Positions 2,538 to 59,186 of a stretch of 59,186 nt of DNA are shown here, piece by piece (positions within the stretch are counted from its first letter, which is position 1; each line of letters begins with the position of its first letter). Source of the DNA: Aplysia californica (Eukaryota). The position numbers were made by a program, and so were the translations under genes. Where the stretch lies: the NCBI RefSeq assembly GCF_000002075.1, contig NW_004797702.1:560468-619653 (forward strand), in the 5' to 3' direction. The notes below the pieces were generated by a model. That model was not told the origin of the DNA. It worked only from the letters and a program-made list of their open reading frames with translations, and did no database searches.

Positions 2538-3234
2538 GATGTAGCGCACACTAAATTATGAGATGATCTTGTTTTCCATGACAACAGTTGTTTCATCATC
2601 ACATCAGAGAGATTATATGCCTAAAAGCACCTTTTTTTTGGTTTATAGATTTGTAGGCTTGATAGATTATTATGAAAAGTCTTTCTCTGTGAGAATGAAC
2701 AATAGAGGTCACATTACGATCACTTTCAATTTAAATTTCTGTCTTAAGCTTGTATCACCCTCCACTTTGGATGTAGGATGTAGCGCACACTATATATATT
2801 ATTATTATACCTGGACCACCCTTGAAATCCCTGCGTATTGTTGTGGGTGTATTTGTTGAATAGACCTTAGCCTTGAAAAGGAAAAAACAAAGGGGGGGGG
2901 GGGCATGATACTTGAGTAAAGATTATACACAAGCTTAAAATCCTGTCCTTATTAATTTATTATGTTGAAAATTCTTCTGTAAAAATAGTAATTTAAATTT
3001 ACTAATACTCATGATGCACATGGCACTATGCTTTTAATCATCAAACTTTGAAAGTTTCAAAGGTCATCTATTCAAATCTTGCTGTGCTTTTATTTTCCTT
3101 TATTGTGTCAGTTTGATGAAAAAAAACAATGCCAAGGTCAATTAATAAATGCTGTTTGGTTGTTTTGTTCATTTGATGTGGTAATTGTTATTATTATTAT
3201 TCATATTATTTTTGTCTCTCCTACTCCCACAGAT

Positions 3235-3339
3235 TTTCCTACCAACTAAAAAGTATTAGGTGTGTCACGCACGCTCATATGACCTTATGCAGTTGCGAGC
3301 TCCGCAAAACCCTCTACTATAAAAAAATAATTTAAAAAA
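3235..3339 (+). mobile_element. 5'-truncated SINE family A 3' end at the POLG acceptor
   Basis: matches the SINE tail (7888-7977); 14-bp TSD ctactcccacagat at 3221-3234 / 3340-3353. Confidence 0.9.
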
Positions 3340-3379
3340 CTACTCCCACAGATATCTTCGTGATCTGAAAAATCATGAC

Positions 3380-3960
3380 ATGATGTCTTTGAGTAGTGTT
3401 GGCAGTCTCAAACAGCTTACACAAATGTCTTGGTGTCAATATCAGTGGTGTCGCAATCTGATTTGTCAGAAGCGATGGTCTTCTTCTTCACCTCGGTTCA
3501 ACTCTGTCAATATTCAAATGCTCACAGAGAGTTTGCACCAACAGATCTTCAAAACAAGTAGTAAAATTAGTAAAAATGAGTTAGGTAAAGGAGACTTAGA
3601 GAAGGTCCATAGTCATCTGAAAAAACATGGCCTATCATCATCTGGATTTTCATCCACTCTTCCGGAAGTGAATCTCAGATTGCCAGACCTACATGGTCAG
3701 AATATGAATGAGCATTTTGAACACATTGCGAGACAACAGGCAGCCCCCTACAGGACACTGGTCGAAGAACTTGCTGGTGCCTCTCTACCTCCCATGCCAC
3801 GTGAATGGAACAGATGTAGAGGCTGGACAAAGTACAACAAAGATGGGACGTTTGAGAGTGTACCTTTCCCTGATGACCATGGTCTTGTTTTTGACATTGA
3901 GTGTCTAGTGCCAGAGGGTCAGTTCCCCACCATGGCGACGGCTGTTTCATCAAAACACTG
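3380..3960 (+). CDS. POLG: POLG coding exon 1 (presequence, NIQML, ExoI)
   Basis: ATG 3380; [11 protein letters not shown]...GWTKY...LVFDIEC...ATAVSSKHW; donor gtaagc at 3961. Confidence 0.92.
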
Positions 3961-6900
3961 GTAAGCTGAAAGGATTTCTATTTAAAATTATCATGTAACC
4001 TTTCAAAATGAGATGTTAATTGGTCACTTTTAAGGACAAGCGGGCTAACCCAGATTTCAGGGGTTTCCAGAAATCTTGACCTACACCAAATTTGGCATTG
4101 ACCTCTAAAGGAGAAGTTTGGTTTCATTGGTGTGTTTATTTGTTTGGTTATAGAGAAAACTCTCCCTGCCTGTTAAATATCACATCAGAGAGATTATATG
4201 CCTTAAAGCACCTTTTTTTGGTTTATAGATTTGTAGGCTTGATAAAGGTCCACTTTGGACCTGTTTTTCACTTTGAAAAAGAAAAAAATGTACTAATTTT
4301 GATTTATTCCATTTCAAAAATTACCTTTTTGATAAAGGACAGTATTATTAACAAGCTAGAACAGCGGTCTCATTCTTTCATTGTGAAACTAGGAGAAAAG
4401 AATGATGTACAGTTATCATAATTTCACTGGCTCGCATGGTCTGTTGTCTTTTGAGAGTGTTTATTATACATGCCTTTGTAAACAGTGACATTTGATTCTT
4501 TGAAAAGGATTGTGATATTATAGTTTCTGTATGTTCCATAGAGACTATAATCACTCTGAATGCCTTCTTTCAAACATATTGATTGCTTCCTCCTCAGGTA
4601 CTCATGGGTTAGTGACTTCGTCTTAGAAGATACTTTTCGATGGGCAGACTCCCCACAGCTGAAAGATCTGATACCCTTGGAGACAAAAGATGGAAGCATT
4701 GTCCCGCCCCTGAAGGAGTGGTCGTCTCGTCTGATCATCGGTCACAATGTTGGGTTTGACAGATCTTTTGTAAAGGAGCAGTACCTAGTTGAGGCAAGAA
4801 CAAAAAGTCTGCTTTTTAAAAAAAAATCTGATCCAGTGTTACAAATATATATTCAATGCCATTGTCTACTCAGTTTATCAGTACACTTTATATAGAGATT
4901 CCTTTCTTTATGAAAGATAGAACATCCATAAACATTTTATGGTTAATGCTGCTGCTTTTGCTTATAAAGTTTTATTTGGCAATTCCTTGGTTATTGTAAT
5001 ACATGGTAGCAGTGGCGGTGGGTGAACCTAGATTTGGGTGGGGCTTAGGTTTCTTCCACTTCTTTACCACCAAAAAGCAAGCAATAAGAACAACACAGTG
5101 ATGATTTTTCTATACTCATGGCGAGCCACGGCATTTTGAGAACCATTCAAACGAGAAGAGTCATCTTTGTCTGCCATCTCTTTGTTCTACGTTAAATTCT
5201 TCTGGATGGTGGGGACGAAGCCGTTTCACCTCCAAATTTCTCTAATTAGTTTTTATTTGATTATTGTTAAATCTCAGCGGCACAAACACACAGCACTCCA
5301 AACACACACCGTGTATGAGGTGGATAGGGTCGTATTGTTGCTGAAAATAGAACGCGCCTAACAAAGGCTCAATGGGTGCATAGGTAACTGTGTCACTGGG
5401 GGAAAGTGTGTCGTAAACTTTCACCCCATTGTCAGGGCTTGGAGAGCGTGAGCCCTCTGTGCAGTGTTCTTTTTTTCAAGTATTCTACCTTTTTACAAGA
5501 GGAGTTTCATTAAGGAGAGACCGTGGGAACGGGCTAGTTGATTGCTGAGCCCTAAAGACATTTGATTGGCTGTTAGGTTACTATAGTTGTAAGCGGGGAC
5601 AACATTGATTGGATAAACGAGCAAGCTGCCTAGTTGATCACTCTGTGTTCATTGCGTTCGATCAGAACAGTTTCAACTGCTTATTTCGTTATTTTCATTT
5701 GCTTTGGGATAGACTTGGGGGGTGGGGAGGGGGGCTCAAGCCCGTGAGCCCTTCACTACCCACCGCCACTGCATGGTAGGTTACTTCCGATGGTCGACTG
5801 CCTCTGACTTGAAGGAAAATATCTTATGCTTTGTATTAGGAATGCATTCAGTTGCTTTGTATACTTCCTCTAACATTTCTATTTATAGATAAAAGTGTTT
5901 TTACTTGTTGTGTTGCATAGCCCACATATATATAACAATGTACCTCTGTAACTAAATCAGTGCTTATCAACCTAGGGTGATTTTGTATTTTTTGGTTAGC
6001 AGTGGGGATCACCCGGGCTGTGACAGGTGTTATTTTATGTCCTGCTTGGAAATTCATGTAGGTGGGTGGTACAAAGATTTTAACATCTTAAAAGTGACGT
6101 TGGCCATAAAAAGGTTTAAAATCATTTATACCAAGTTATACCATTTTTTTGTTTTTTTGTTCAGGGTACTCAGCTACGGTTTTTGGACACAATGTCAATG
6201 CATATTGCGATCTGTGGCCAAACAAGTTTTCAAAGACTTCTTCATCGAGCAAGTGGAAAAGAAAGCAGCAGGAAGGAAGTGGTTGAGCATGCTCAGCGGC
6301 AAAAACTCTTTAAGATGGCTTCGGTTCGTTCCAATATTGTTAAAATTCAAGTACACTACTATTGATAGAAAATGCAAATTCTATTGTTTTAGTCTTTGTT
6401 TGGTGTCTTAGTTTAAATGCTTTTGCTTATGCCGTGTGGAATTTATCTGTGTCTTATAACGTAAACAATGCTAAAACCAAGAGAGATTCCCACTAGCTGT
6501 GCACATCCACAAGTGGAGGTGGAACTTTTGAATGCTCAAAATGTGGCAAACTTTTCTCTGCCAGAATTGGTTTCGTTGGCCGTAGAAAAAGCCACCTGTC
6601 GTCTTAACCTTTAAGTCTACTAATTCTTCCATTTTGTTTTAGAAATATTCTCTTCTTCAGATGTATTGGTCATCACAGACATTGATGGATGAACTTTTAT
6701 TATTTTAACTTATATAAAAAAGAGTATAAAATATTGAAGTCTCAGGGATTGCTATTGTCTTCTAGAAGTAAAGGGCATTGTGCTATTGCTGCCTGACTTT
6801 GAGGCTAAGTTTACCCCTGTACGGGAATGATCAAAACTTTTCGCTGATTTAGGCTCAGATGTAAATTTCCAAGGATTACTTTGTTCATTTTTAATTTCAA

Positions 6901-9900
6901 TTTTGATATTGGAAAGTGCCAGAAAACAAGTGTACCTTTGAAACATTTCTCAGGAGGAGTAAAGTTTATAGCACTGAAATTGTTTGCTCTTTGTTGTTTC
7001 ATCCTCACGACTGCATTGAAGAGTGACGAGTGGAAGAAGATAAGCAGTATGAACAACCTGAGAGATGTGCACCAACTGCATTGTGGTGGGGAGGCCATTG
7101 AGAAAAGCAAGCGGGACGTCTTCATGGATGGCACCATGATGGATGTCAGAGAACAGTTCCAGGTCAGGTGTCTTTATTTGCATCTTAATGAGAGATTTAA
7201 CATCTGTAAAAGTAACGTAAGACAAGATGAGAAAATTTTTACTCGTTGTCTATTGTGAGTCTGGGGTTTTATTTCAGTGTCTTCTTCAGTGGTTAACGGT
7301 ATTGATAAATACTGACATACCCATACACATCGCAACTAACCAAGTACATACATATATGAACATACGAATGTGAATTTGAAGTTCGCCTGAAGTTTTTGTC
7401 AGTTCATCAATTGAGCAATTCTTTACCCTTGACTGTGATTAGTTGTCACAAAAGCTGAAGGGGGGGCTCTTGTGGCCTTGAGGTTAAGGTGTTCGCCTCT
7501 CATTCAAAGGCCCCGGGTTCGAATCCGGGTAGCAACGGGAAAAATTTCCTTCTCTAAAATTGTCTCCTTTCACCTTCTTTCCTTCTCGCTTGCAATTTTC
7601 TGTCGTCTGCTTTTTCTCCACTTTCTCCCCCCCCCCCTTCACCCCCTTTGCCCCCTCCACTGGGCTCCTGACTCTTTCTGCAGCGTTTCTACTGCTACTC
7701 CTTGGCTCCTTACTGCTATCTTTCAGCCACACCCCTGGTCTTCTGGTAGGAAAAATCTACACCTAGCCTTCTTGGACAAGGGCGAAAAATCTCTGAGGTC
7801 CCGTGTGCAAGCTGTGCATGATAAAGATCCCTTGATGGTCCAAAATCGATAAGAGTAGGCTTCGGTCGCCACCTCGGCAAAATTCAAAATTTCCTACCGA
7901 CTGAAAATGTTAGGTGTGTCCATGCGCTCATATGCTTATGCAGTTGCGAGCGCTGTAAATCACTTACCATAAAAAAAAAAAGCTGAAGATATTAAAAAGA
8001 TCGCAATTTTTATCAGTTGCTGGTACATGTCTGATGCACATGATGATTGAGTGCCTGTTTTCCAACTAGTTTATAATATGATCAGCAATACAAAGTCAAT
8101 AACTAGGGCAAATGTGTTGTGTACTTCCAGGACTTGATGACGTACTGTGCTAATGATGTGAAGGCAACCCATGAGGTCTTTGCAAGTCTCTGGCCACAGT
8201 TCAAAGAAAGGTATTGGAAAATTTTTCTTGGCTGTACAGAAAGAGTAAAAACACATGTAGATATACATAGAACGTAAATTTTATGTGTCATGACGCTGTG
8301 GAATCAGGCGCTCGTCAATTTGTGGACATTTGGAGTTATTTATATCATCTTAAAGGTTATTCATTTGCCTTACTTTTAATGAAAAAAATACCCATCTTGA
8401 ATAGAAATCAAGATATTTCCGATTGAAGGAGGTGAGGACGCCTGGTTTCTGTGGGGAAATAAGCGAGAAAATGGCTGTCAATAGTTTGGTAACTCCAATT
8501 GCTAAAGAGTCCTTGAAAAATGACATATTTTGTGCCTTTAATCAATGTTTTTCAGTAAAATTCACACAAAAATATGTTTTTATATGGACGTAAAAGGGGT
8601 TGAGCTAAAAGACAAAAATTTGATAAAAATTGCCATACTAGCGGAAAAATGCCTGTTTCTCCGATTTCATTATTTTGACGAGCGCCTGATTTCACCACGC
8701 TGCCTCAAGTATTACTTTTTAAAAAATTCAATAAGAAGAGAAAAATAAAGATGACAATAACACTGGCATACAAGTTTTCAAAAAGTTTCTGCTTCGGGGA
8801 TTAAACAACTTTTTTTATAAATGGATTTGAAATATTTGATTGACTTATACACTTTGGGGTATTACTTCTATAAATACAAATCAATCCACTACATTCATGT
8901 GCTGTGGCTGTGCTGCAGGAAGAGTCTCACTATACATCTGGAGATGTTCATTCCTACACAATTCAGTTTGCATATAATGATGGCATGTTATTTGTTCTGT
9001 TATGCAAGAAGTTGCAATTTTCAGATAAAGGATCCATGACATGTTTCTCCTACTAGGACTGAGCTGAATGTTTGTATTTTGCACAGATTCCCCCATCCTG
9101 TGACCCTTGCAGGAATGCTGGAAATGGGAACTGCTTATCTCCCTGTGCTGGACACATGGCCAAGATACATCCAAAGCGCCAACAACACCTTTGATGAGAT
9201 GGAGAGAGAGCTCAAGAAGCTCCTTATGACCCTGGCTGATGATGCCTGCAGGTTGCTTCAAAATGACGAGTAAGGAAAGTCATAAGTTCATTCAAGAGGC
9301 CATTTTGAAACTGGTGCCAGTAGAGAACTGAGATTGCCATGGAGACTTTGTTTATAATGGACATTATCCAACTTTCAATTTAGTTATCCAAAATTGTTTT
9401 TGGACATAATGGTCCTCTGTGATTCATCCTACTTTTAGAGGCTTTTTGTCTTTGTTGTAATTTTGTCTTTATTGAATCCAATATAATGTAGCACAGAGCG
9501 CTAAACAGTGTTAGTTTGGTCTTGAGTTAGAAGCTTAATTAAGCTTAATCATCATTTTTCCTTTTATTATTTTCTTATACTGATTTTACAATTGTTTATG
9601 CTAGTGGGTAGAAAATGAAATTCAAATGTATGGATTCATAGATAGCAAATCTGATTCCAACTATTTGCCATGTCTCGGGAATTCAAATTGCTTTGAAAAA
9701 CAGATATATATGCCTACCTAAGTGTATGTGTCTTTGTCTTTTTTACTTAAAGTGAAGACCAAACTGCTCTTCTGCAGGATCTTCTTTGAATACACTACGT
9801 TTTTGATAGAATAGTGCTGTTCTCACCTTTGGCCACCTTCTTTTATTTGTACTGTCAAACCTGTGTAAAACAGCCACCCATTGTCAATGAGAAAAGTGGC

Positions 9901-12900
9901 CTTATAACACAGGTGGCTGTCTTAGGCAGGATAGGCAGGATGGATCAAAATGAAGAAAGTAAATCCTTCTCATCTGAGGTTCAAACCAGGGCTGATCTCA
10001 GGCTTTGGACTGCTGTTAGGCTAATTCAAAAGGGTTTTTGTTTTCTTTTGAAAAAGGGGGATGGGTGGTGTAAGAAAGTTTTTGTGTTGTTGTTTTTTGT
10101 TGATTAGCATTCTTTTTGTTGCTGATTTTGTACAAGGGTAATATAAGCCAACTATTATGTATGTAAGAGGAGAAAGACAGAGAGCCACAGTAAAACAACC
10201 ACACGGGTCGTCACCACTCGGAGAACGAACAACGCTTCTGTCGCAAGTTCACATCAATGTCCATTGTTACTTTGTTACAGATTAGGTAAACAGTAAACAA
10301 AACAGTGACTGAGTCACCTCACTCACGATGCGTGCATGAGTTGTGGGCGGAGCTTATAGGTTTTGACGGATCACGCTTCACTCAACAGCAGTTGAAAATT
10401 TATTGTTAGGCCTACCCCTTGGTCAGCTTGGGTAAACATTCACTGGAGGGACTAACAATGACGACAGGTGAATGGGTTATGACAGCCCATCCATAGCGTG
10501 AGGGCTGATTCAAAATTTATGTCAAAGGGTCAGGTAATGAGTGACCATGCCTGGCCGCCTGAGACAGATAAATTTGACCATGGGTTGATAAAATAAGGTG
10601 GCTGCAGCAGCGTTGAACAGGTGACCGTTTTACACAATTACATTATATGGAAAAAATGCAAGAGGGGGAATGGAAAGTGGCCGTGTTATACAGATGCCAT
10701 TATGGGAGGTTCGACTGTAATTCTTTTAATTACTTTTCGCCACAGCCTGAAAGAATGATGGTTCTGTCATCACATTTATTTGTTTTGCAATAAAGTGAAA
10801 AAAACTTTGTCTTCTTGTTTTTGCCAGGTATAAGAACGACCCTTGGTTGTGGGATCTAGATTGGACAGTATCAGATTATCGTCTTAAAAAAACAGCAGGG
10901 AAATCCTTGGAAATGGAAGATCCTTTTGACTCAGTTGATCACGATGCTGATGTTTATCCCGATTACTTGAGAGTGACAGAGGTTAGTGTTGTTTCTTGTT
11001 TGTTTCCATATATAAGAAGATAACATTTTTATTGTGACTCCTTGTTTACTTTCCCGAGTCTGTAATGGATGAAATCGTTCTAAAACATCTTTGTTTTTTG
11101 TTTTTTTGCACTAGTATTTTTGTTTTCCAGTTCTTTCCAAGAATGGTATAAACTATTTGCTTAAGATTTGTGTGTGTGTGTGGGGAGGGGGGGGGGGGGG
11201 GGGAAAGGGGGTGATACAAAGCTCAGGTAGCATTTTGATTTAATTGTTCAATGTTGTTTATCTCCCTTGATGTAGCCTGAAATTCATACCAAAGGAAATT
11301 TGTATATTATGAAAAGATTTCAGCTTCCCATCAATTTCAATTTCGCTATGCATATGCTAAGCTGTACATTCACATGCACNNNNNNNNNNNNNNNNNNNNN
11401 NNNNNNNNNNNNNNNNNNNNNNNNNNNNNNNNNNNNNNNNNNNNNNNNNNNNNNNNNNNNNNNNNNNNNNNNNNNNNNNNNNNNNNNNNNNNNNNNNNNN
11501 NNNNNNNNNNATGGCTACGTATTGTTGAGGAGAAAAATACTTGGCTCCGTCATGGGGAAAAAAGCAATTTTTTTTTTGAGGGGGTGGGGGGAGTGATTGT
11601 TTCTACAAGTGATTTTCTTGAACAAGATAGATGGGCATTTTTTTTTTCTGTGAAAGTAGTAAAGTAAATAAACAAATTATACTTTATTGAGCCCCGAAGG
11701 GAGATTTGGGTTACAATGGCAAATATACATGAGATATATAATTAAACACACAAATATATGAATATAGAGGAAACCAAACACACAATATCGCACCAATGCA
11801 AAACAATTTCACAAACATGCCTTTGCTGGTTGCCAACAACCGTGCAGCGCCCTGTTTTTTTAGATAGGGTTATCATGTCTTACTCAAGGACACACCCCAG
11901 TGACCCTTTTCTCTGCTATTTCTGTCTTTCATTCTTATTTTTTCCCAGCACTGAATGGTTATGTTGATGTGCTTCTCTTGATTCAATCACTCAAAATAAA
12001 AGTAAAATTGTCTGTGTTGTCAGGGTGACCATGTGGCAGAAGAACACAGAAAAACAGTGAGACAAGTGTACTCATCTGCATCAAGAATACCCAAAAACCC
12101 GACATTTATGCCAGGCTACCCTGCGTAAGTGCTTTGATTACTTGAGCAAGAAATTATTTCTTAAATCTATTCTTTGCCTCCAAGTCCAATTCTGTTTGAA
12201 ACTATCATGACAAAATATCAAAATAGAATATTGTTTATTGCTATAAAAATTCTCAATTAATTGGATATGTAATGTATGTCCATTCTATCAATATTGATGC
12301 TGCTCAAACATGTGCGAAGACAATTTTACGTTTCTTTGATTTCGCACAATTTTGCCAAGCCTGATTTTTTAAGGTCAATTTTGAGCGACCATATCTTGGG
12401 CATCTCTTAACATAGATAAACCATTAATGTGTCAGATGATGCAGAATTTATTTAGTTTTAAATTGGTACGCTGCATGAGTTGGTAACGCGAAGCTTTAAC
12501 ACGATGATTGGGCGACTACTTTTTCAAGTTTCTTTTGGACGCTGCTGTATTTTTGGGGGCTTTGCGTTGCTTGTTTTGTCATTTTAAAAAAATGGATTTT
12601 TGATCTTTTATTCTTATTCTCAATTTGCAGTTTTGTAAATAATTTCCCTTCTTTCTGCCAGATGGTATAAAGACTTGTGCCCGAGGCCGAATGATGAAGA
12701 TTTTTATCCGGGCCCTTCAAACATCAGCAGTCAGTGCCGCGTTGCTCCAAAACTGATGCGCCTCACTTGGGAAGGTTTGTTCCCGCTATAACTCCGCATT
12801 CTACTCCTTTTACAGTCTAGGCCTAACTCGCTAATACCTGTGTGTGAGGAAGTTTATCAAGCAGCAACCGTTCGCTGGCAGTATAGAGAGGCAAAATTAC

Positions 12901-15900
12901 ATGTTTAATAAGAAGCATACAGCTCGGCTAAGGAATGACGGTGTGATGACGGACATCATGTATATATAGGTGTTCCTTTTTGTACATTGGCAAAATCTGG
13001 CAGTAATAGAGGCTGGAAGTTTAACAGGGTTTGACTGGGCTTTGTATATTAGTTGATCTTATTTACCAAATAATATTGAGACTTAATTTTGAAATGGTTG
13101 TGAATGTTTTGTATAAATTGGAAAAGGAAATGTGAGCGGAATACATTTTTTATCAGTCATATCTCATTTTGTGCTATTAAGTGTATCCTTATGCCGTGAA
13201 TATAGGACCAGTTCACTACTGTTTTGCCTGAACTTTCATATAGCTATAACTGTTGTTTTTTTAAAAGCATTCTTAGCTGCACCCTTAAAACCTAATTCTT
13301 TTTTGCTTGTGTGTGGAAGGATGTGGTTTTTGTTTCCTCTGTTCAGCAGCCCTCTGAAGAAACTTCTTGACTGCCATGTTGGACGTCAATACTGTATTTT
13401 CATTAAACCAATGGTGTATCACTGAAAGCTATGAAACATTTATCTTTTTTTTTTTTTAGAAATAAAAAATAACTTATACATCTCAGGATTCCCGGTACAT
13501 TACCACACCAAACACGGATGGGGCTACCTTGTGCCATATCATGAGGAGCTGACTGAGGTAGAAATGGAACTACGAGAGCAAGACACAAGTCCAGAAGATG
13601 AGCACAGATTTCCTCTGCAGTAAGAGTTTTTGTGTGGATTCTGTGGACTCAAGTAGGACTGTTTCTTGCTCTGCCACTCTCAACTAATGCAGCCTGCCAG
13701 ACATGCCCCAAGACTTGACGTTTTACCCATTCTGTTTCTATTAGGTTATTTTCATTTTAATGAAAAACTTTTTTCTTGCAGTAGCAGACACTGAAATCTC
13801 AACCTGATAGTTGTGCATTGTCAAGTGAAAAGTAAAGGGGTGTTTAGTTTTAACGCCCCTATCAACACAATAAGGTTGTTTTAGGGGATCTGAATTTAAC
13901 ACATTCTGTCTCCGATAAGACCATTCCAAATGGGTTGTTGGCGCTCATATGACCTTATGCAGTTGCGAGTGCAGTAAAACCACAACTAAAACAACAACAA
14001 ATGGGTTGAGAAACTTGAAAACTCCACAAAATGACCTCAATTCAAGAATTCCCTGTCTGGGTTTTGAATCAGGGCCATATGCTCCATAGTCCAGCATGAT
14101 ACCGACTGAGCATATGGAATGCCCTTTGTCAAGAAAATCTACATACAAAATAAATTGTGTCATAATGGAGCAAGATTGTTTGGTTTCTTTTTACTCGGAG
14201 TGTAAGTCATTTTTTAACATCACCTCCTTCATACTTGCAAGTCAGTATGTCTTTTACTTACTACTGTACTGAGTTCAGCTTTTCACAAAAATGATGATTC
14301 TTTGATAGCAGAGCAGTTTTGTATTCTTGTCTTGTTTATAGAGGATGTGTAGCTTTGAATTGTTTTTAGAAAGGTGTTACTGGTGGAAACAGGAATATTT
14401 CATGATTAACTCACTTCAGACGGGTCACACAACAGTTGCGTGACCCCCGCTGCGACGCTCGCGACGGGTCTCACAAGCCCTGCGTGACCAACTTTGGAAT
14501 TTTTTTTCCGCTCTACAAATCACGCACGGATCGCGAGACCCGCCTCGTACCCTTGTTTGGCCAAGCCTGAGCTACTTAGACTTCGTTTCGTATCTCTGGG
14601 GCCGGTAGTTTTTAAGTTATTGAAGGTGAAGGACAGTGACCCCAACTGGGGTTGAACAGACCGGAACTCGCGCTTTGTTTTTTTCTATACAGCTGATAGT
14701 AATCCGACAGTCGCGTCGTAGTAACGGTCGAAGAAGTCGCATGAACAAGAATCACATAATTTCACTGTTTTCTATACTTCTGTGCGTTTTACTAGTTCTA
14801 GTGTCTCAGAATATGATGTGTCTAATAGTTAAGATCCTGGATATGTACCCGAACACGACCCGAGTCGTAGTTCTAGGGCTAGATCTAGCACTAGTACCGG
14901 TGTTGTTTTTCGCGCAACGAAATAACAACGTCGTGCTGTACATCTGTCTCATGTAATTCAGTGTATGGGTCTGAATCAATGCACAGACCAGCTTTTATAT
15001 TTTCACCAAACACTCGCACATGTATACAAATCAAACCAGAACACTTTGAACTTTTATTTTTGTTGTTGCAGTGAATTTCATTCTACTTGTCACGTCTCTG
15101 GAAATTTTTCGGAAAATCAAATTCATGCCAATTTTTAAAAAATCATACAAATTAAAGTATTAGACTTAGACAACTTTAGTTTTTTGTATTAGATTAAGCT
15201 TGAACGTTACTTTACTGTGTCAAAAAATTATTACAATAGAATAATTCTGAGAGTTGTGGTGATTTATTGAAATACCCCCAAAAATGCCAGTCTGCAACGC
15301 TTGTGACTGGTGAAAGGGCCCAGTCGCAAGTGAGTTAAACCCATACTACCCCTGAAGTTTATAACTGCAGAGCTTACATAAGATTGGCAATGGCTTTTTT
15401 TGTGTGGTGCTCATGTATTATCAACCTTTGTTTTCATAGATGATGCCTCCATGAATGATTCTCATCTCCTGGAAATATTCCTGCAAATGATTATTCATTT
15501 TTTCTGTTTTCAGAGCCTTTCTTTCGTTTGTGAAAGAAAACAATCCATTGGATTATGGGTCTTTGTCGGGTGCTGATGGACTCATGGGGTCACCAGAAGC
15601 TATGAAGCATTTGGATGTAGACTTTGATCAGAAGGCCATGGATACAGATGAAAAAATACTGCATTGGGAGACAGCTTTGAGCAAGAAACCAGTATGTTAT
15701 AGAGTCTACAGCTTTGGATTAGCTTGACGAATTTTGAATATTTGTGGAATAAGGATACAATGGTGGACATGCAGCTTTAAGCTCATCTGAAATATTCTAA
15801 TCTTATATTTAATTATCAGACCTGCCACTCATCCCGATTTAGTCGGGATATCCCGATTTTTTTGCCCCAAATCTCAAGCATCCCAATTTTCCCGATTTCG

Positions 15901-32633: not shown

Positions 32634-33362
32634 GGAAGGAGTTCCACAGAGGGCTGGCCGACCAACAACACACGAAAGAGGGGATATTTTGAGCGAGGTA
32701 TACCCTAACCCTAACCTTAACCCAAAACCCTAACCCTAACCGGGGGGTTCTCGTGGCCTACAGGTTAAGGTGATGGCCTCTCATTCAAAAGGCTCTGGGT
32801 TCGAATCCGGGTAGCGACCGAAAAAAAATTTCTTCTCTAAAATTGTCTCCTTTCATCTCCTTTCCTGCTCTCTAGCAATGTTCTGTTGTCTGCTTTCATT
32901 TCCACTTTCTGTCCCCACCCTCTCACCTCTTTTGCCCCCTCCTCTGGGCTCTTGACTCTTTCTGCAGCCTTTCTACTGCTACTCCTTGGCTCCTCCTTAC
33001 TGCTGTCTTTCTGCCACACCCCTGATCTTCTGGTAGGAAAGATCTACTCCTAGCCTTCTCGGACAAGGGCGAAAAATCTCGGAGGGCCCGTGTGCAAGTT
33101 GCGCACGTTAAAGATCCCTTGATGGTCTAAATTCGATAAGAGTAGGCTTCGGCCACCATCCGGGCAAAAATTCAAAATTTCCTACCAACTGAAAATATTA
33201 GGTGTGTCCCGCGCGCTCATATGACCTTATGCAGTTGCGAGCGCCGTAAAACACTGTACAAAAACAAACAAACATAACCCTAACCCTAACTCTTGTATAG
33301 ATTGCTCAGTGGACCTTGTCACGGTAAGTGCCGCCCCCCCCCCCCCCTGCGGACCTCCTCCC
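32634..33362 (+). mobile_element. GG-start TIR MITE (family H) containing CCCTAA repeats and a SINE
   Basis: both arms match 55823-56273 in reverse. Confidence 0.75.
32742..33275 (+). mobile_element. full-length tRNA-derived SINE (family A) inserted in CCCTAA repeats
   Basis: colinear with 7461-7977; TSD aaccctaaccctaac (32726-32740 / 33276-33290). Confidence 0.92.
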
Positions 33363-50357: not shown

Positions 50358-51464
50358 TACACACATACCAGCCACTCCATTCGTAATTATTATCAACAAA
50401 CCTCGAGAATGGAAACCGTTCAGAGAAATAGAGTTAAAGTTTATTTTCACGAACGTACGGAGAAATAGAGCCGGCCTATCATATTAAGGAATACTGAAAT
50501 TTCCCATTGTTGTGCTTCCCGGTCGAAGTAGGTCAGCCCTATATATATATATATATATATATAGATATATAGGCCTGCGCGCTTCCAGGCCCAGGGTTAA
50601 CTCACTTCAGACGGTTCACACAACAGTTGCGTGACCCCCGCCGCGACGCTCGCAACGGGTCTCACAAGCCCTGCGTGACCAACTTTGGAATTTTTTTTCC
50701 GCTCTACAAATCACGCACGGATCGCGAGACCCGCCTCGTACCCTTGTTTGGCCAAGCCTGAGCTACTTAGACTTCGTTTCGTATCTCTGGGGCCAGTAGT
50801 TTTAAAGTTATTGAAGGTGAAGGACAGTGACCCCAACTGGGGTTGAACAGACCGGAACTCGCGCTTTGTTTTTTTCTATACGGCTGATAGTAATCCGACA
50901 GTCGCGTCGTAGAAACGGTCGAAGAAGTCGCATATGAATAAGAACCACATAACTTCGCCGTTTTCTATACTTCTGTACGTTTTACTAGTTCTAGTGTCTC
51001 AGAATATGATGTGTCTAATAGTTAGGATCCTGGATATGTACCCGAACACGGCCCGAGTCGTAGTTCTAGGGCTAGATCTAGCACTAGTACCGGTGTTGTT
51101 TTTCGCGCAACGAAATAACAACGTCGTGCCGTACATCTGTCTCATGTAATTCAGTGTATGGATCTGAATCAATGCACAGACCAGCTTTTATATTTTCACC
51201 AAACACTCGCACGTGTATACAAATCAAACCAGAACACTTTGAACTTTTATTTTTGTTGTTGTAGTGAATTTCATTCTACTTGTCACGTCTCTGGAAATTT
51301 TTCCGAAAATCAAATTCATGACAATTTTTAAAAAATCATACAAATTAAAGTATTAGACTTAGACAACTTTAGTTTTTTGTATTAGATTAAGCTTGAATGT
51401 TACTTTACTGTGTCAAAAAATACTTACAATAGGGTAATTCTGAGAGTTGTGGTGATTTATTGAA

Positions 51465-53093: not shown

Positions 53094-53172
53094 ATCTAGA
53101 TCTAGATCTAGATCTAGATCTAGATCTATATATCTAGATCTAGAATCTAGATTAGATCTTATAGATCTAGAC
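53094..53172. repeat. (TCTAGA)n palindromic microsatellite
   Basis: tandem atctagatctag...; related clusters at 39-140 and 55676-55712. Confidence 0.85.
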
Positions 53173-53298
53173 TAAGACTGTACTGAGTTGTTACTGGGGA
53201 GGTAAATAATAATATTATTGAACAGTACAAGGCATCCAATCACTCCATATTTGTGTCCATAATCCCCGACTCGAAGCTGGACTTTATCAACAACTTAC

Positions 53299-53480
53299 GG
53301 GGAAAAGTAAGCAGCTGATTCTTCAGCCTGATACGCTCCACAAGAACAGTTCAGCTGTGTGACTGTGTGTGTGTGTACAATTTTGACTCAGAATAATATG
53401 CCAGGTAAAACTAATGTGTAAAGACTACTGTGGCAAGTTGATCTGTAAGACCACTGTAGGTCTTCCTTCAGACATCAGGA
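53299..53480 (-). other. candidate non-coding first exon of PRRC1 (duplicated at ~57640-57815)
   Basis: Strong minus-strand donor gtaagt (acttac ending at 53298) in sequence not part of any TE I recognised, upstream of the PRRC1 acceptor; 5' end is a guess. Confidence 0.3.
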
Positions 53481-54025
53481 AAACGCATACATTGCTCAAG
53501 ATGGTTATTACATGCACATTACATTTCAAAAGAATTGAAGCTTTTCTTTTGAATTATACATTTTATTCGTGATAAAGAAGCTCTATACAAAGAATATTCA
53601 ACACATATTCTAAAAAGAACAGTTTGAGTTGGTCTTTTTTGTTTCTTTCCCAAAGAAACACCGAGTTGGCAATTCGATGACACCTCTTTCTACGTGGTTC
53701 TAATTTTTTTTTCTATTTTGTTTTCCCCTTACGAAAGCCATATATTTATTCAATATACTATTTTCAGGATTAATTCAATTGTAATAAACAAAAGCAAAGG
53801 TTGGTTTTGTATTATCACTTTCTCGAATTTGTCACTGTCCAACGAGATCTTGTCCACCATGTTTGTATGTCTTCGCGACCGACGACGCCACCGGGATGAG
53901 AGATGACGGAACTCAGTTACCAAGCCATACGAACGGCTAACCAAGCTCGAGAAGCTGTGCGTATCTACTTACAATTTGACATGACTTATCAATATTGCAA
54001 ACTTTAATTTTTTTATGCAGATCTA

Positions 54026-54285
54026 GGGTAAGATTGAAGAATACCGGACCAGCGGACTGGAACTACTGCTCTTGCCTATGTCTCAACCGTAGGTTAGGAA
54101 TTCATGATTTTTCCCCAGTTTTTAATATTCTTGGAGAATCTCGGACCGGTAGATCTATTCATTAACAATTTGTCCCCACCCCCCTGAACCCCCAACCCCC
54201 ACCCCTCTTTCCTCCAGCTCCCCCCCCCCCCCCCTCCATTCTCGCGCAATTATAATACGAGTGGTCCGTCATTCTTCAATCTTCC
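54026..54285. mobile_element. small TIR MITE
   Basis: aagattgaagaat..cggacca inverted at both ends; degenerate TSD. Confidence 0.65.
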
Positions 54286-54673
54286 CAGATAAAATCATGG
54301 ATAGGGTGAGAATAACAATAGTTACAATACAACGCCCTATACCTATACATACGTTTCGGGCATCATAGGACAACAAAAGTCGCCCGGATCCCTCTCTCAC
54401 TCTGCTGAGAGTGGGAGGCGAATAAAATCACCAACGGGCGGACCAGCTCTCGAGCGAGGGAGACGACTATTATATATTGTATTGTCGGTTTGGGGGAAAA
54501 TCTTATCTTTTGAGCAAATATAGCGTCAGCTTTTAATAGTTGCATATTGGTTCTGTAATGGAAAATTTTACTCCAATCAAAATCAAGAAAATAAATTTAT
54601 AAGCCGAGGGTCAAGGCACTGCATGTCTTCGTGGATTCTGTTAGGGATAATATGTGTGTTGTAAACAAATCCA

Positions 54674-55016
54674 GGTACTCTTCGGGAGAAGTGGTCCCGG
54701 CCTAACTCCCTAAGACATTTAGATCTATACATTATGCACACATCGGAAACAAAACCAGAAGTTGCCTTTCAAAAAAAAGGGGGTGGGGGGTCTCCCTCCT
54801 GCTAAATTCACAAAAAAATACTTTGTGGCAGTTTTTAGTGCCAAAATTGTTCTCAGCACACAAAAAAACCCCCGTTAGAGTAGTGCTGAAAATAGTCTCA
54901 AATAGGTTTGGCAGGCAACTCAGTTCAGGTTTTTTACTCGACTTCCGTTTTTGTTTCCGATTTTTTGTATAAATGTCTATTTAGTTAGGCTGCGACCCCT
55001 TCTCCCGAAGAGTGCC
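54674..55016. mobile_element. Merlin-like MITE
   Basis: ~33-bp TIR gg(t/c)actcttcgggagaag; perfect 8-bp TSD caaatcca; interior homologous to 2305-2440. Confidence 0.85.
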
Positions 55017-56624: not shown

Positions 56625-59186
56625 GGGGTGGGAACTACCGAAAAAGCACCCTATTCTCACCCCGGGTGAGAATAGAGGTGGCCTTTATTGAAATACCCCT
56701 CAAAATGCCAGTCTTCAACGCTTGTGACTGGTGAAAGGGCCCAGTCGCAAGTGAGTTAAGTTTGTCCACTTTGTTGTAGTGTGCGATTTGAAGTCTAGCA
56801 GGTTTTATGGCTTTTATTATAATGTGAAGTCAGTGAAGTGGAGGGCCGTACACATGATAGCCTCAATGCTCAAGAAGCCAGTAAAAGATCAAGTCTACAA
56901 GTACATGAACATTTGATTTTCTAATGGCCACCAAATTTTGCGTTCACCCTAAACCACAGAATTCTACACTGTGATAACAGAAAAATTGTAGAATTCTGTG
57001 CCGTGAACAAACGTTCCATTACAACTGTAGCCTACTAAAAGCGTACAATTTTGTCTGTGGGCAGTGGAGAGAGAGAGAGAAAGAGAGAGAGGAGTAGCGC
57101 GAGAATTTTCGGGCAAAACAAAATGGCGACCCGCGTAGTTCAGCTCGATTCGAAAAGTTAAATAGCCGAAGCATCTTTGTAGACAACCAAATTAATTTAC
57201 TTTTGTGTTTTAACATCATTTTTTAACTTTGTTTTGGTCAATTTGATCATCGACACCGATAGACAGTATTCAGAAAGAGACAGAGAGAGAGAGAGAAGAG
57301 GGGAGGAGTTGATCTTGCGAGAACTTCCGGGCAGGTGAGAATAGCCACTTTCTTTTCTAATAGTAGAATGATTTAACTTTGACAGGGACTAAGACAAAAG
57401 TAAAAAGAGACAGGAATTGAAGTTGAAGTATGAAGACGATGAAGAAAGATAATAGAAGAGAGTAGAGAGACAGTCAATAATAGCAGTAGGCCTACTAAGA
57501 TCTAGAATCTAGACTTAGACTGTACTGAGTTGGTACTGGGGAGGTAAATAATAATATTATTGAACAGTACAAGGCATCCAATCACTCCATATTTGTGTCC
57601 ATAATCCCCGACTCGAAGCTGGACTTTATCAACAACTTACGGGGAAAAGTAAGCAGCTGATTCTTCAGCCTGATACGCTCCACAAGAACAGTTCAGCTGT
57701 GTGTGTGTGTACAATTTTGACTCAGAATAATATGCCAGGTAAAACTAATGTGTAAAGACTACTGTGGCAAGTTGATCTGTAAGACCACTGTAGGTCTTCC
57801 TTCAGACATCAGGAAAACGCATACATTGCTCAAGATGGTTATTACATGCACATTACATTTCAAAAGAATTGAAGCTTTTCTTCTGAATCTTTTGAATTAT
57901 ACATTTTATTCGTGATAAAGAAGCTCTATACAAAGAATATTCAACACATATTCTAAAAAGTACAGTTTGAGTTGGTCTTTTTTGTTTCTTTCCCAAAGAA
58001 ACACCGAGTTGGCAATTCGATGACACCTCTTTCTACGTGGTTCTAATTTTTTTCTTTCTATTTTGTTTTCCCCTTACGAAAGCCATATATTTATTCAATA
58101 TACTATTTTCAGGATTAATTCAATTGTAATAAACAAAAGCAAAGGTTGGTTTTGTATTATCACTTTCTCGAATTTGTCACTGTCCAACGAGATCTTGTCC
58201 ACCATGTTTGTATGTCTTCGCGACCGACGACGCCACCGGGATGAGAGATGACGGAACTCAGTTACCAAGCCATACGAACGGCTAACCAAGCTCGAGAAGC
58301 TGTGCGTATCTACTTACAATTTGACATGACTTATCAATATTGCAAGCTTTAATTTTTTTATGCAGATCTAGGGTAAGATTGAAGAATACCAGACCAGCGG
58401 ACTGGAACTACTACTCTTGCCTATGTCTCAACCGTAGGTTAGGAATTCATGATTTTTCCCCAGTTTTTAATATTCTTGGAGAATCTCGGACCGGTAGATC
58501 TATTCATTAACAATTTGTCCCCACCCCCCTGACCCCCCACCCCCACCCCTCTTTCCTCCAATCTCTCCCCCCCCCCCCCTCCATTCTCGCGCAATTATAA
58601 TACGAGTGGTCCGGCATTCTTCAATCTTCCCAGATAAAATCATGGATAGGGTGAGAATAACAATACAACGCCCTATACATACGTTTCGGGCATCATAGGA
58701 CCCGGCCCCCCACTAAGCGCTCCAGGCAACAAAAGTCGCCCGGATCCCTCTCTCACTCTGCTGAGAGTGGGAGGCGAATAAAATCACCAACGGGCGGACC
58801 AGCTCTCGGGCGAGGGAGACGACTATTATATTGTATTGTCGGTTTGGGGGAAAACCTTATCTTTTGAGCAAATATAGCGTCAGCTTTTAATAGTTGCATA
58901 TTGGTTCTGTAATGGAAAATTTTACTCCAATCAAAATCAAGAAAATAAATTTATAAGCCGAGGGTCAAGGCACTGCATGTCTCCGTGGATTCTGTTAGGG
59001 ATAATATGTGTGTGTGTAAAAAAAAAACCCGGGACCCCTTCCGGGAGAAAGGGGCCCCGGGCCTAACCCCCCCAAGAACATTTAAAAATTTTTTTTTTAT
59101 ACCCCCCCCCTGGAAAAAAAAACCCAAAAATTCTCCTTTCTAAAAAAAAAAGGGGGTGGGGGGGCCCCCCCTCCCCCCAAAATTTC
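56625..59186 (+). repeat. near-identical duplicate of ~52164-54810 after a 100-N gap (probable alternate haplotype)
   Basis: colinear with small indels; the last ~170 nt decay into homopolymer-rich, low-quality-looking sequence. Confidence 0.85.

Follow-up and report, generated by a model that had tools for sequence, protein, structure and literature searches.

A SINE fragment behind a duplicated, probable splice acceptor in the 5′ leader of Aplysia californica POLG

The gene for the mitochondrial DNA polymerase POLG of Aplysia californica carries, within its 5′ leader and shortly before the start codon, the 3′ end of a SINE, and this fragment is carried in spliced POLG RNA. The insertion is confirmed to be both real and expressed. 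The 14-bp target site that was duplicated on insertion contains the AG of a likely splice acceptor, which is now present twice (AG1 upstream and AG2 downstream of the SINE). The reading favored here, to which we assign a probability of roughly two-thirds, is that the fragment and its two weak-context upstream open reading frames (uORFs) are a tolerated, constitutive part of the POLG leader, with AG1 as the default acceptor. The whole 59,186-nt stretch of DNA that was analysed is referred to below as the window, and all positions are counted from its first letter.

The POLG locus and the anatomy of the insert

NCBI lists P0001, an Aplysia californica protein, as DNA polymerase subunit gamma-1, and it contains the Pfam domains PF18136 and PF00476 (mitochondrial polymerase exonuclease, family A). 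The 194-codon exon starting at 3380 matches it with 100% identity. Matching the window to P0001 placed 17 POLG introns exactly, at which point the exon walk ended. The first coding intron (3960 to 4598) is a GT-AG intron of 637 nt; the second (4794–6164) has a GC donor (GC-AG), which is needed to read P0001. An A>G allele is present at 3424, within the first coding exon, in runs X12 and X17.

A neighboring gene lies head-to-head with POLG. Its first exon occupies 164–275 on the minus strand, with the gene start near 263–275, and a downstream frame (L031:2967-3467, minus strand) matches Pfam Ribosomal_L35p with an E value of 2e-10 (68 of 98 frames scanned). This neighbor probably encodes mitochondrial ribosomal protein L35 and would have its promoter region in common with POLG. 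Between the two promoters, at about 740–2030, lies a decayed LINE-like fragment that is highly repeated in DNA-like sequencing runs; its reading frames, labelled by motif, are taken by us to be RNase H-like. The window also contains long dispersed near-identical repeats, 53165–54796 with 57507–59169 (93%) and 14406–15271 with 50597–51464 (97%).

The 14-mer CTACTCCCACAGAT is found at both 3221–3234 and 3340–3353. The two copies are identical, the match can be extended on neither side, and the 105 bp between them (3235–3339) constitute the insert (Table 1). Each copy ends in an AG followed by two bases, which places AG1 at 3231–3232 and AG2 at 3350–3351. The SINE therefore sits 2 nt inside the host exon, behind an apparently intact host acceptor, and splicing at AG2 would remove exactly 119 nt and restore the leader to its pre-insertion form. 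The 14-bp target duplication, the 105-bp insert, the two AGs and the two uORFs had all been located in the initial annotation of this DNA, and every one of these coordinates held when rechecked. Exact repeats of at least 14 bp within 300 bp occur 19 times in the window; the repeat flanking the insert is not a chance one, because both of its ends coincide to the base with the match to the repeat family. Duplication of the flank during assembly was ruled out, as 2960–3234 is single-copy in the genome.

Table 1. Positions of the features discussed, in window coordinates.
Feature	Positions	Strand	Basis and remarks
AG-free pyrimidine-rich stretch, likely host branch region and pyrimidine tract	3137..3230	+	AG-free zone of 96 nt; single-copy flank
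Target-site copy 1 with AG1, likely default acceptor	3221..3234	+	Exact repeat; acceptor use predicted
SINE 3′ end, 5′-truncated, sense, core of 84–85 bp plus A-rich tail	3235..3339	+	Repeat-family match
Target-site copy 2 with AG2	3340..3353	+	Exact repeat; crossed unspliced by POLG contigs in 4/4 runs
uORF1, 18 codons	3279..3335	+	Out of POLG frame; C at −3; inside RNA contigs
uORF2, 11 codons	3287..3322	+	In POLG frame; single TAA (3320–3322) at core/tail border; C at −3
Host mini-uORF, Met-Thr-stop	3375..3383	+	A at −3; stop overlaps POLG start; kept whichever AG is used
First coding exon of POLG	3380..3960	+	ATG 3380, second in-frame ATG 3383; joint 3960->4598 in 4/4 runs
Full-length copy of the same SINE family, reference	32742..33268	+	Repeat comparison; weak tRNA match at 32747–32819

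The repeat is abundant. A first look yielded 3338 candidates in the genome, and all 40 that were scored match. Full-length copies measure about 530 bp (32742–33268 and 7461–7980 in the window). Their tRNA-like head gives a weak match to the Rfam tRNA model that stays under its 29-bit cut-off (15.8 bits, E 2.5), and ARAGORN detected no tRNA. At all 29 other loci fetched the SINE body continues in the 5′ direction; the POLG-leader copy lacks it and departs from the majority at these 29 loci, the closest copies, at 5 of its 84 core positions. Candidate target duplications of 11–15 bp flank 10 of the 29, and several others contain N or have rearranged ends. The missing body, the A-rich tail and the 11–15-bp duplications elsewhere together indicate that the POLG insert is a 5′-truncated sense SINE with an ordinary target duplication.

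The last ∼45 bases of the SINE, which hold both upstream ATGs, are common to copies with several unrelated bodies (L034-L063), as would be expected if this tail had been borrowed from a partner LINE. Among the copies with a recognised segment, the first ATG is present in 58/58 and the second in 57/58, so the uORFs are inherited from the SINE family and did not arise locally; sense landing of any such family in a leader would supply two upstream ATGs. The name 'SINE-A' used in the initial annotation is that annotation's own label. The family may resemble the Nin/Deu SINEs. Its length of ∼530 bp is unlike that of Aca_CORE_1 (338) or Aca_CORE_2 (226). Three short SINE motifs had no match in the four searchable supplement files of PMC4758252, and the family was not identified in the accessible part of PMC5786205.

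The number of comparable landings expected per genome without selection was computed from assumed inputs: 3,338–30,000 copies, 5,000–15,000 leader acceptors, 12 suitable registers and a genome of 927 Mb. The result, 0.2–6, means that the arrangement needs no adaptive story.

The SINE in spliced POLG RNA

Sequencing runs were used to examine expression. Twenty-four were found, none annotated as RNA; six were analysed, and those that are cDNA were recognised by their spliced contigs. Spliced POLG contigs joining 3960 to 4598 were recovered in four of four runs from four studies (X11, X9, X12 and X17). X11 and X12 are further recognised as cDNA because the neighbor's exon 164–275 is joined in both to an exon that lies outside the window, 5.2 kb upstream of it. 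The four spliced POLG contigs begin at 3275, 3275, 3275 and 3278, respectively, all inside the SINE, and each bridges AG2 unbroken with 74–77 letters on its left and 0–1 differences overall. Two of these runs have depths of only 5.7 and 7.3, and since SINE-bearing POLG RNA was recovered even there it is not a rare form. Presence of the SINE tail in spliced POLG RNA, predicted from the sequence at the outset, is thus borne out in all four runs. Splicing of all transcripts to 3352 is incompatible with the SINE held by the spliced contigs, and a transcription start downstream of 3340 is incompatible with contigs that reach 3275–3278.

The 5′ ends of the contigs call for a different interpretation from that of transcript starts. 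The 31-mer 3274–3304 has 126 genomic copies, and the next base differs in 27 of 30 copies fetched; a contig end at 3275 therefore fits a boundary of the assembly graph. The 31-mers starting at 3275–3281 are not confined to this locus either, and its contig starts at 3298 in two DNA-like runs. Locus-unique RNA support accordingly begins at 3298, upstream of AG2 and downstream of both ATGs, so that the presence of the upstream ATGs in the mRNA rests on the contig being unbranched. The loose end that X11 and X12 show at 3271 does not belong to the POLG locus and was traced to another one (G000:C227).

Among the joints listed (15/22 in the four RNA-like runs and 4 in a further set), none leads to 3233 or to 3352 and none is that of an empty site (3234->3354), a result to be read with the fact that contigs cannot show absence. 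POLG exon 1 was not found, and the donor-like sites at 2203, 2283, 511 and elsewhere are unranked guesses. The RNA-like runs show no cover at 2970–3155 (4/4), 3010–3229 (2/2) and 370–589; DNA-like runs also have holes (2350–2459 and 2570–2789), which makes these gaps uninformative. Rare forms are dropped from contigs, and the Logan assembler applies a SPAdes-like graph simplification, according to the accessible part of its description (10.1101/2024.07.30.605881). Such graph clean-up may well eliminate a first exon that is short and runs into a very deep repeat node.

The filled site is bridged in 6/6 runs analysed, including two DNA-like ones with other alleles nearby (248 and 292), which points to an insertion that is common or fixed. 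No empty allele was seen in the six runs, and a metagenome scan for the locus of a relative returned 91 pattern matches with none from relatives. The SINE tail shows no gap in the POLG-linked contigs of the six runs. X7 and X8 show one additional A at 3320; it is on separate contigs and probably comes from another SINE copy.

Choice of acceptor and effect on translation

The two AGs were compared with 17 real POLG acceptors, which have 10–18 pyrimidines at positions −22 to −3, and with 853 intronic decoy AGs. AG1 has 17 pyrimidines in these 20 positions, and the previous AG is 96 nt back; AG2, behind the A-rich tail, has 11 pyrimidines and 9 A's. Only 5 of 853 decoys reach the pyrimidine count of AG1, and 383 of 853 reach that of AG2. 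The 11 pyrimidines of AG2 are nonetheless within the real range, and one real POLG acceptor has 10 A's. A position matrix built from the 17 acceptors gave scores of 2.1 for AG1 (equalled or exceeded by 135/853 decoys, with 3/17 real acceptors below it) and 0.3 for AG2 (211/853 and 2/17, respectively); the matrix is too weak to rank AG1 over AG2, and both scores are low for real sites. Lower still, at −9.8 to −3.1, are the four AGs within the SINE. One of them (3298–99) is crossed by the RNA contigs, and another (3291–92) is crossed unbroken from 3275 by three of the four.

In splicing, the first AG after the branch point and pyrimidine tract is the preferred acceptor. Together with the retained pyrimidine tract, this rule makes AG1 the likely default acceptor for the POLG leader, which agrees with the SINE-bearing RNA contigs. 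The SINE supplies no splice site, and both acceptor candidates are host sequence, which differs from classical exonisation of a transposable element. The exonisation proposed in the initial annotation is upheld in that the SINE, with both ATGs, is in spliced POLG RNA, and has to be recast in that the element contributes no splice site. The alternative-acceptor switch proposed alongside it retains its two AGs; usage of both is not supported so far, in that no contig has a junction at 3352 or 3233, although contigs show presence and not absence.

Translation of POLG is predicted to be affected little by the SINE. The two SINE uORFs end 44 and 57 nt before the ATG at 3380. Weak, short and distant uORFs leak and permit re-initiation, so a mild effect on POLG translation is the likeliest one, and the actual effect is probably of this kind. 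The analysis added two elements absent from the initial annotation: the ATG at 3287 is in frame with POLG, and the host has a mini-uORF of its own at 3375. The latter has a good initiation context and may weigh more on POLG translation than the SINE uORFs.

These observations can be assembled into the following course of events, which is our preferred account. Retroposition placed a truncated sense SINE copy, with a 14-bp duplication, at the likely acceptor, and this copy is present in spliced RNA and in every run analysed. An upstream non-coding POLG exon would exist, and the spliceosome would take the first AG after the branch point, namely AG1; AG2, behind the A-rich tail, would be a minor site at most. 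Ribosomes would mostly scan past both upstream ATGs or re-initiate after the short uORFs. The insertion may have persisted because acceptor and reading frame were left intact.

A different outcome, in which both AGs are used meaningfully so that the ratio of a long leader with two extra uORFs to the ancestral short leader sets POLG output, is considered unlikely. AG2 does retain 11 bases from the original context of the acceptor, and neither its pyrimidine count nor its matrix score puts it outside the range of real POLG acceptors; the assembler's graph clean-up might have removed a short first exon if one was joined to 3352; and the dog merle SINE, also at an acceptor, yields variable acceptor choice (PMC7349775). 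However, the path through AG2 is unbroken in 4/4 spliced contigs even at depths of 5.7–7.3, the sense orientation puts an A-rich tail rather than a T-tract before AG2, the opposite of merle, and there is no sign of regulation or selection. It is also quite improbable that POLG lacks an upstream exon altogether, with transcription starting at about 3230–3275, neither AG acting as an acceptor and the SINE forming the exon's 5′ end. The RNA contigs begin inside the SINE, and no junction onto 3233 is among the joints listed, as such a start would have it; yet the contigs end at the very base at which 31-mers common to several loci lead one to expect the graph to break, and the sequence before 3233 bears acceptor hallmarks (17/20 pyrimidines and the 96-nt AG-free zone). 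The region 3001–3200 is moreover 29% G+C with no CpG, and the head-to-head gene near 263–275 marks where, 3 kb upstream, a common promoter region likely lies. Least probable, and by our estimate very much so, is that the SINE part of the contigs derives from unspliced precursor or from other copies, the mature mRNA being spliced to 3352. Part of the SINE segment, up to 3297, is indeed shared with other genomic copies, but in 4/4 runs these very contigs are spliced across the intron that follows, and 3298–3351 is locus-specific and lies upstream of the cut at AG2.

Comparison with known systems

The merle allele of the dog is the closest known system to the POLG-leader SINE. There, a SINE-Cf is inserted at the boundary of PMEL intron 10 and exon 11 with a 15-bp target duplication, and the length of its tail shifts splicing (PMC7349775). 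In both cases a SINE, tRNA-derived in the dog and putatively so in the sea hare, lies at an acceptor (a probable one in POLG) with a target duplication of similar size (15 bp, and 14 bp for POLG), and acceptor choice decides, or for POLG would decide, whether the SINE is included in the mRNA. The merle SINE is antisense, so that its poly-T serves as the pyrimidine tract and a cryptic acceptor of the SINE comes into play, altering a coding exon. The POLG-leader SINE, in contrast, is a truncated sense copy in a 5′ leader, has an A-rich tail in place of the T-tract, brings no acceptor and is seen in one splice form.

Two further systems share single traits with POLG. De novo Alu insertions in NF1, as presented in the accessible part of PMC3219598, are likewise retropositions into the acceptor AG or pyrimidine tract; they disrupt the site and cause exon skipping, whereas at POLG the host tract and AG are intact upstream and the gene is expressed. 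Introners, according to the portion of PMC11282704 available, resemble POLG in that an AG from the target duplication can allow exact removal of the element, but they are mostly DNA transposons that form new introns with their own donor; at POLG there is no new intron, and the RNA keeps the element. Among the papers listed in a search by titles and the starts of abstracts, with most subscription journals outside its reach, there was no earlier description of the Aplysia POLG-leader SINE. The locus offers a clean natural example of an essential gene that tolerates insertion at an acceptor, the duplication leaving the host acceptor whole and providing a second AG for exact removal. It also provides an easy minigene or reporter pair, with acceptors 119 nt apart, in a model animal of neurobiology.

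The mammalian POLG leader itself received an MIR insertion that gave rise to POLGARF, as reported in the accessible part of 10.1101/2020.03.06.980391. The likeness to the sea hare is that, in the same gene and by an independent event, a leader SINE lies just before the start codon, overlaps a short uORF and offers new starts. The two differ in that, by the same partial source, a mammalian CUG opens a conserved overlapping frame of 260 codons that has been fixed for ∼160 million years, and there is none in the sea hare. No ATG, CTG, GTG, TTG or ACG in 3233–3399 gives an out-of-frame stretch longer than 22 codons, and in the first coding exon of POLG the other frames stay open over 66 and 54 codons at most; dual coding of the POLGARF type, with a SINE start opening a long overlapping frame, is thus not found here. 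A far-reaching proposal, which we regard as very unlikely, would be that the SINE has been kept in the mollusc leader, independently of the mammalian MIR, for the sake of its two acceptors, the ratio of long to short leaders being tuned by tissue or stress and setting the supply of the mtDNA replicase. If true, SINE-borne translational control would have arisen at POLG more than once, in two phyla. The insertion would gain greater importance only if both acceptors were used in a regulated way or if the leader measurably set POLG levels; as a tolerated, constitutive part of the leader, it makes a curious counterpart of the SINE in the POLG leader of mammals.
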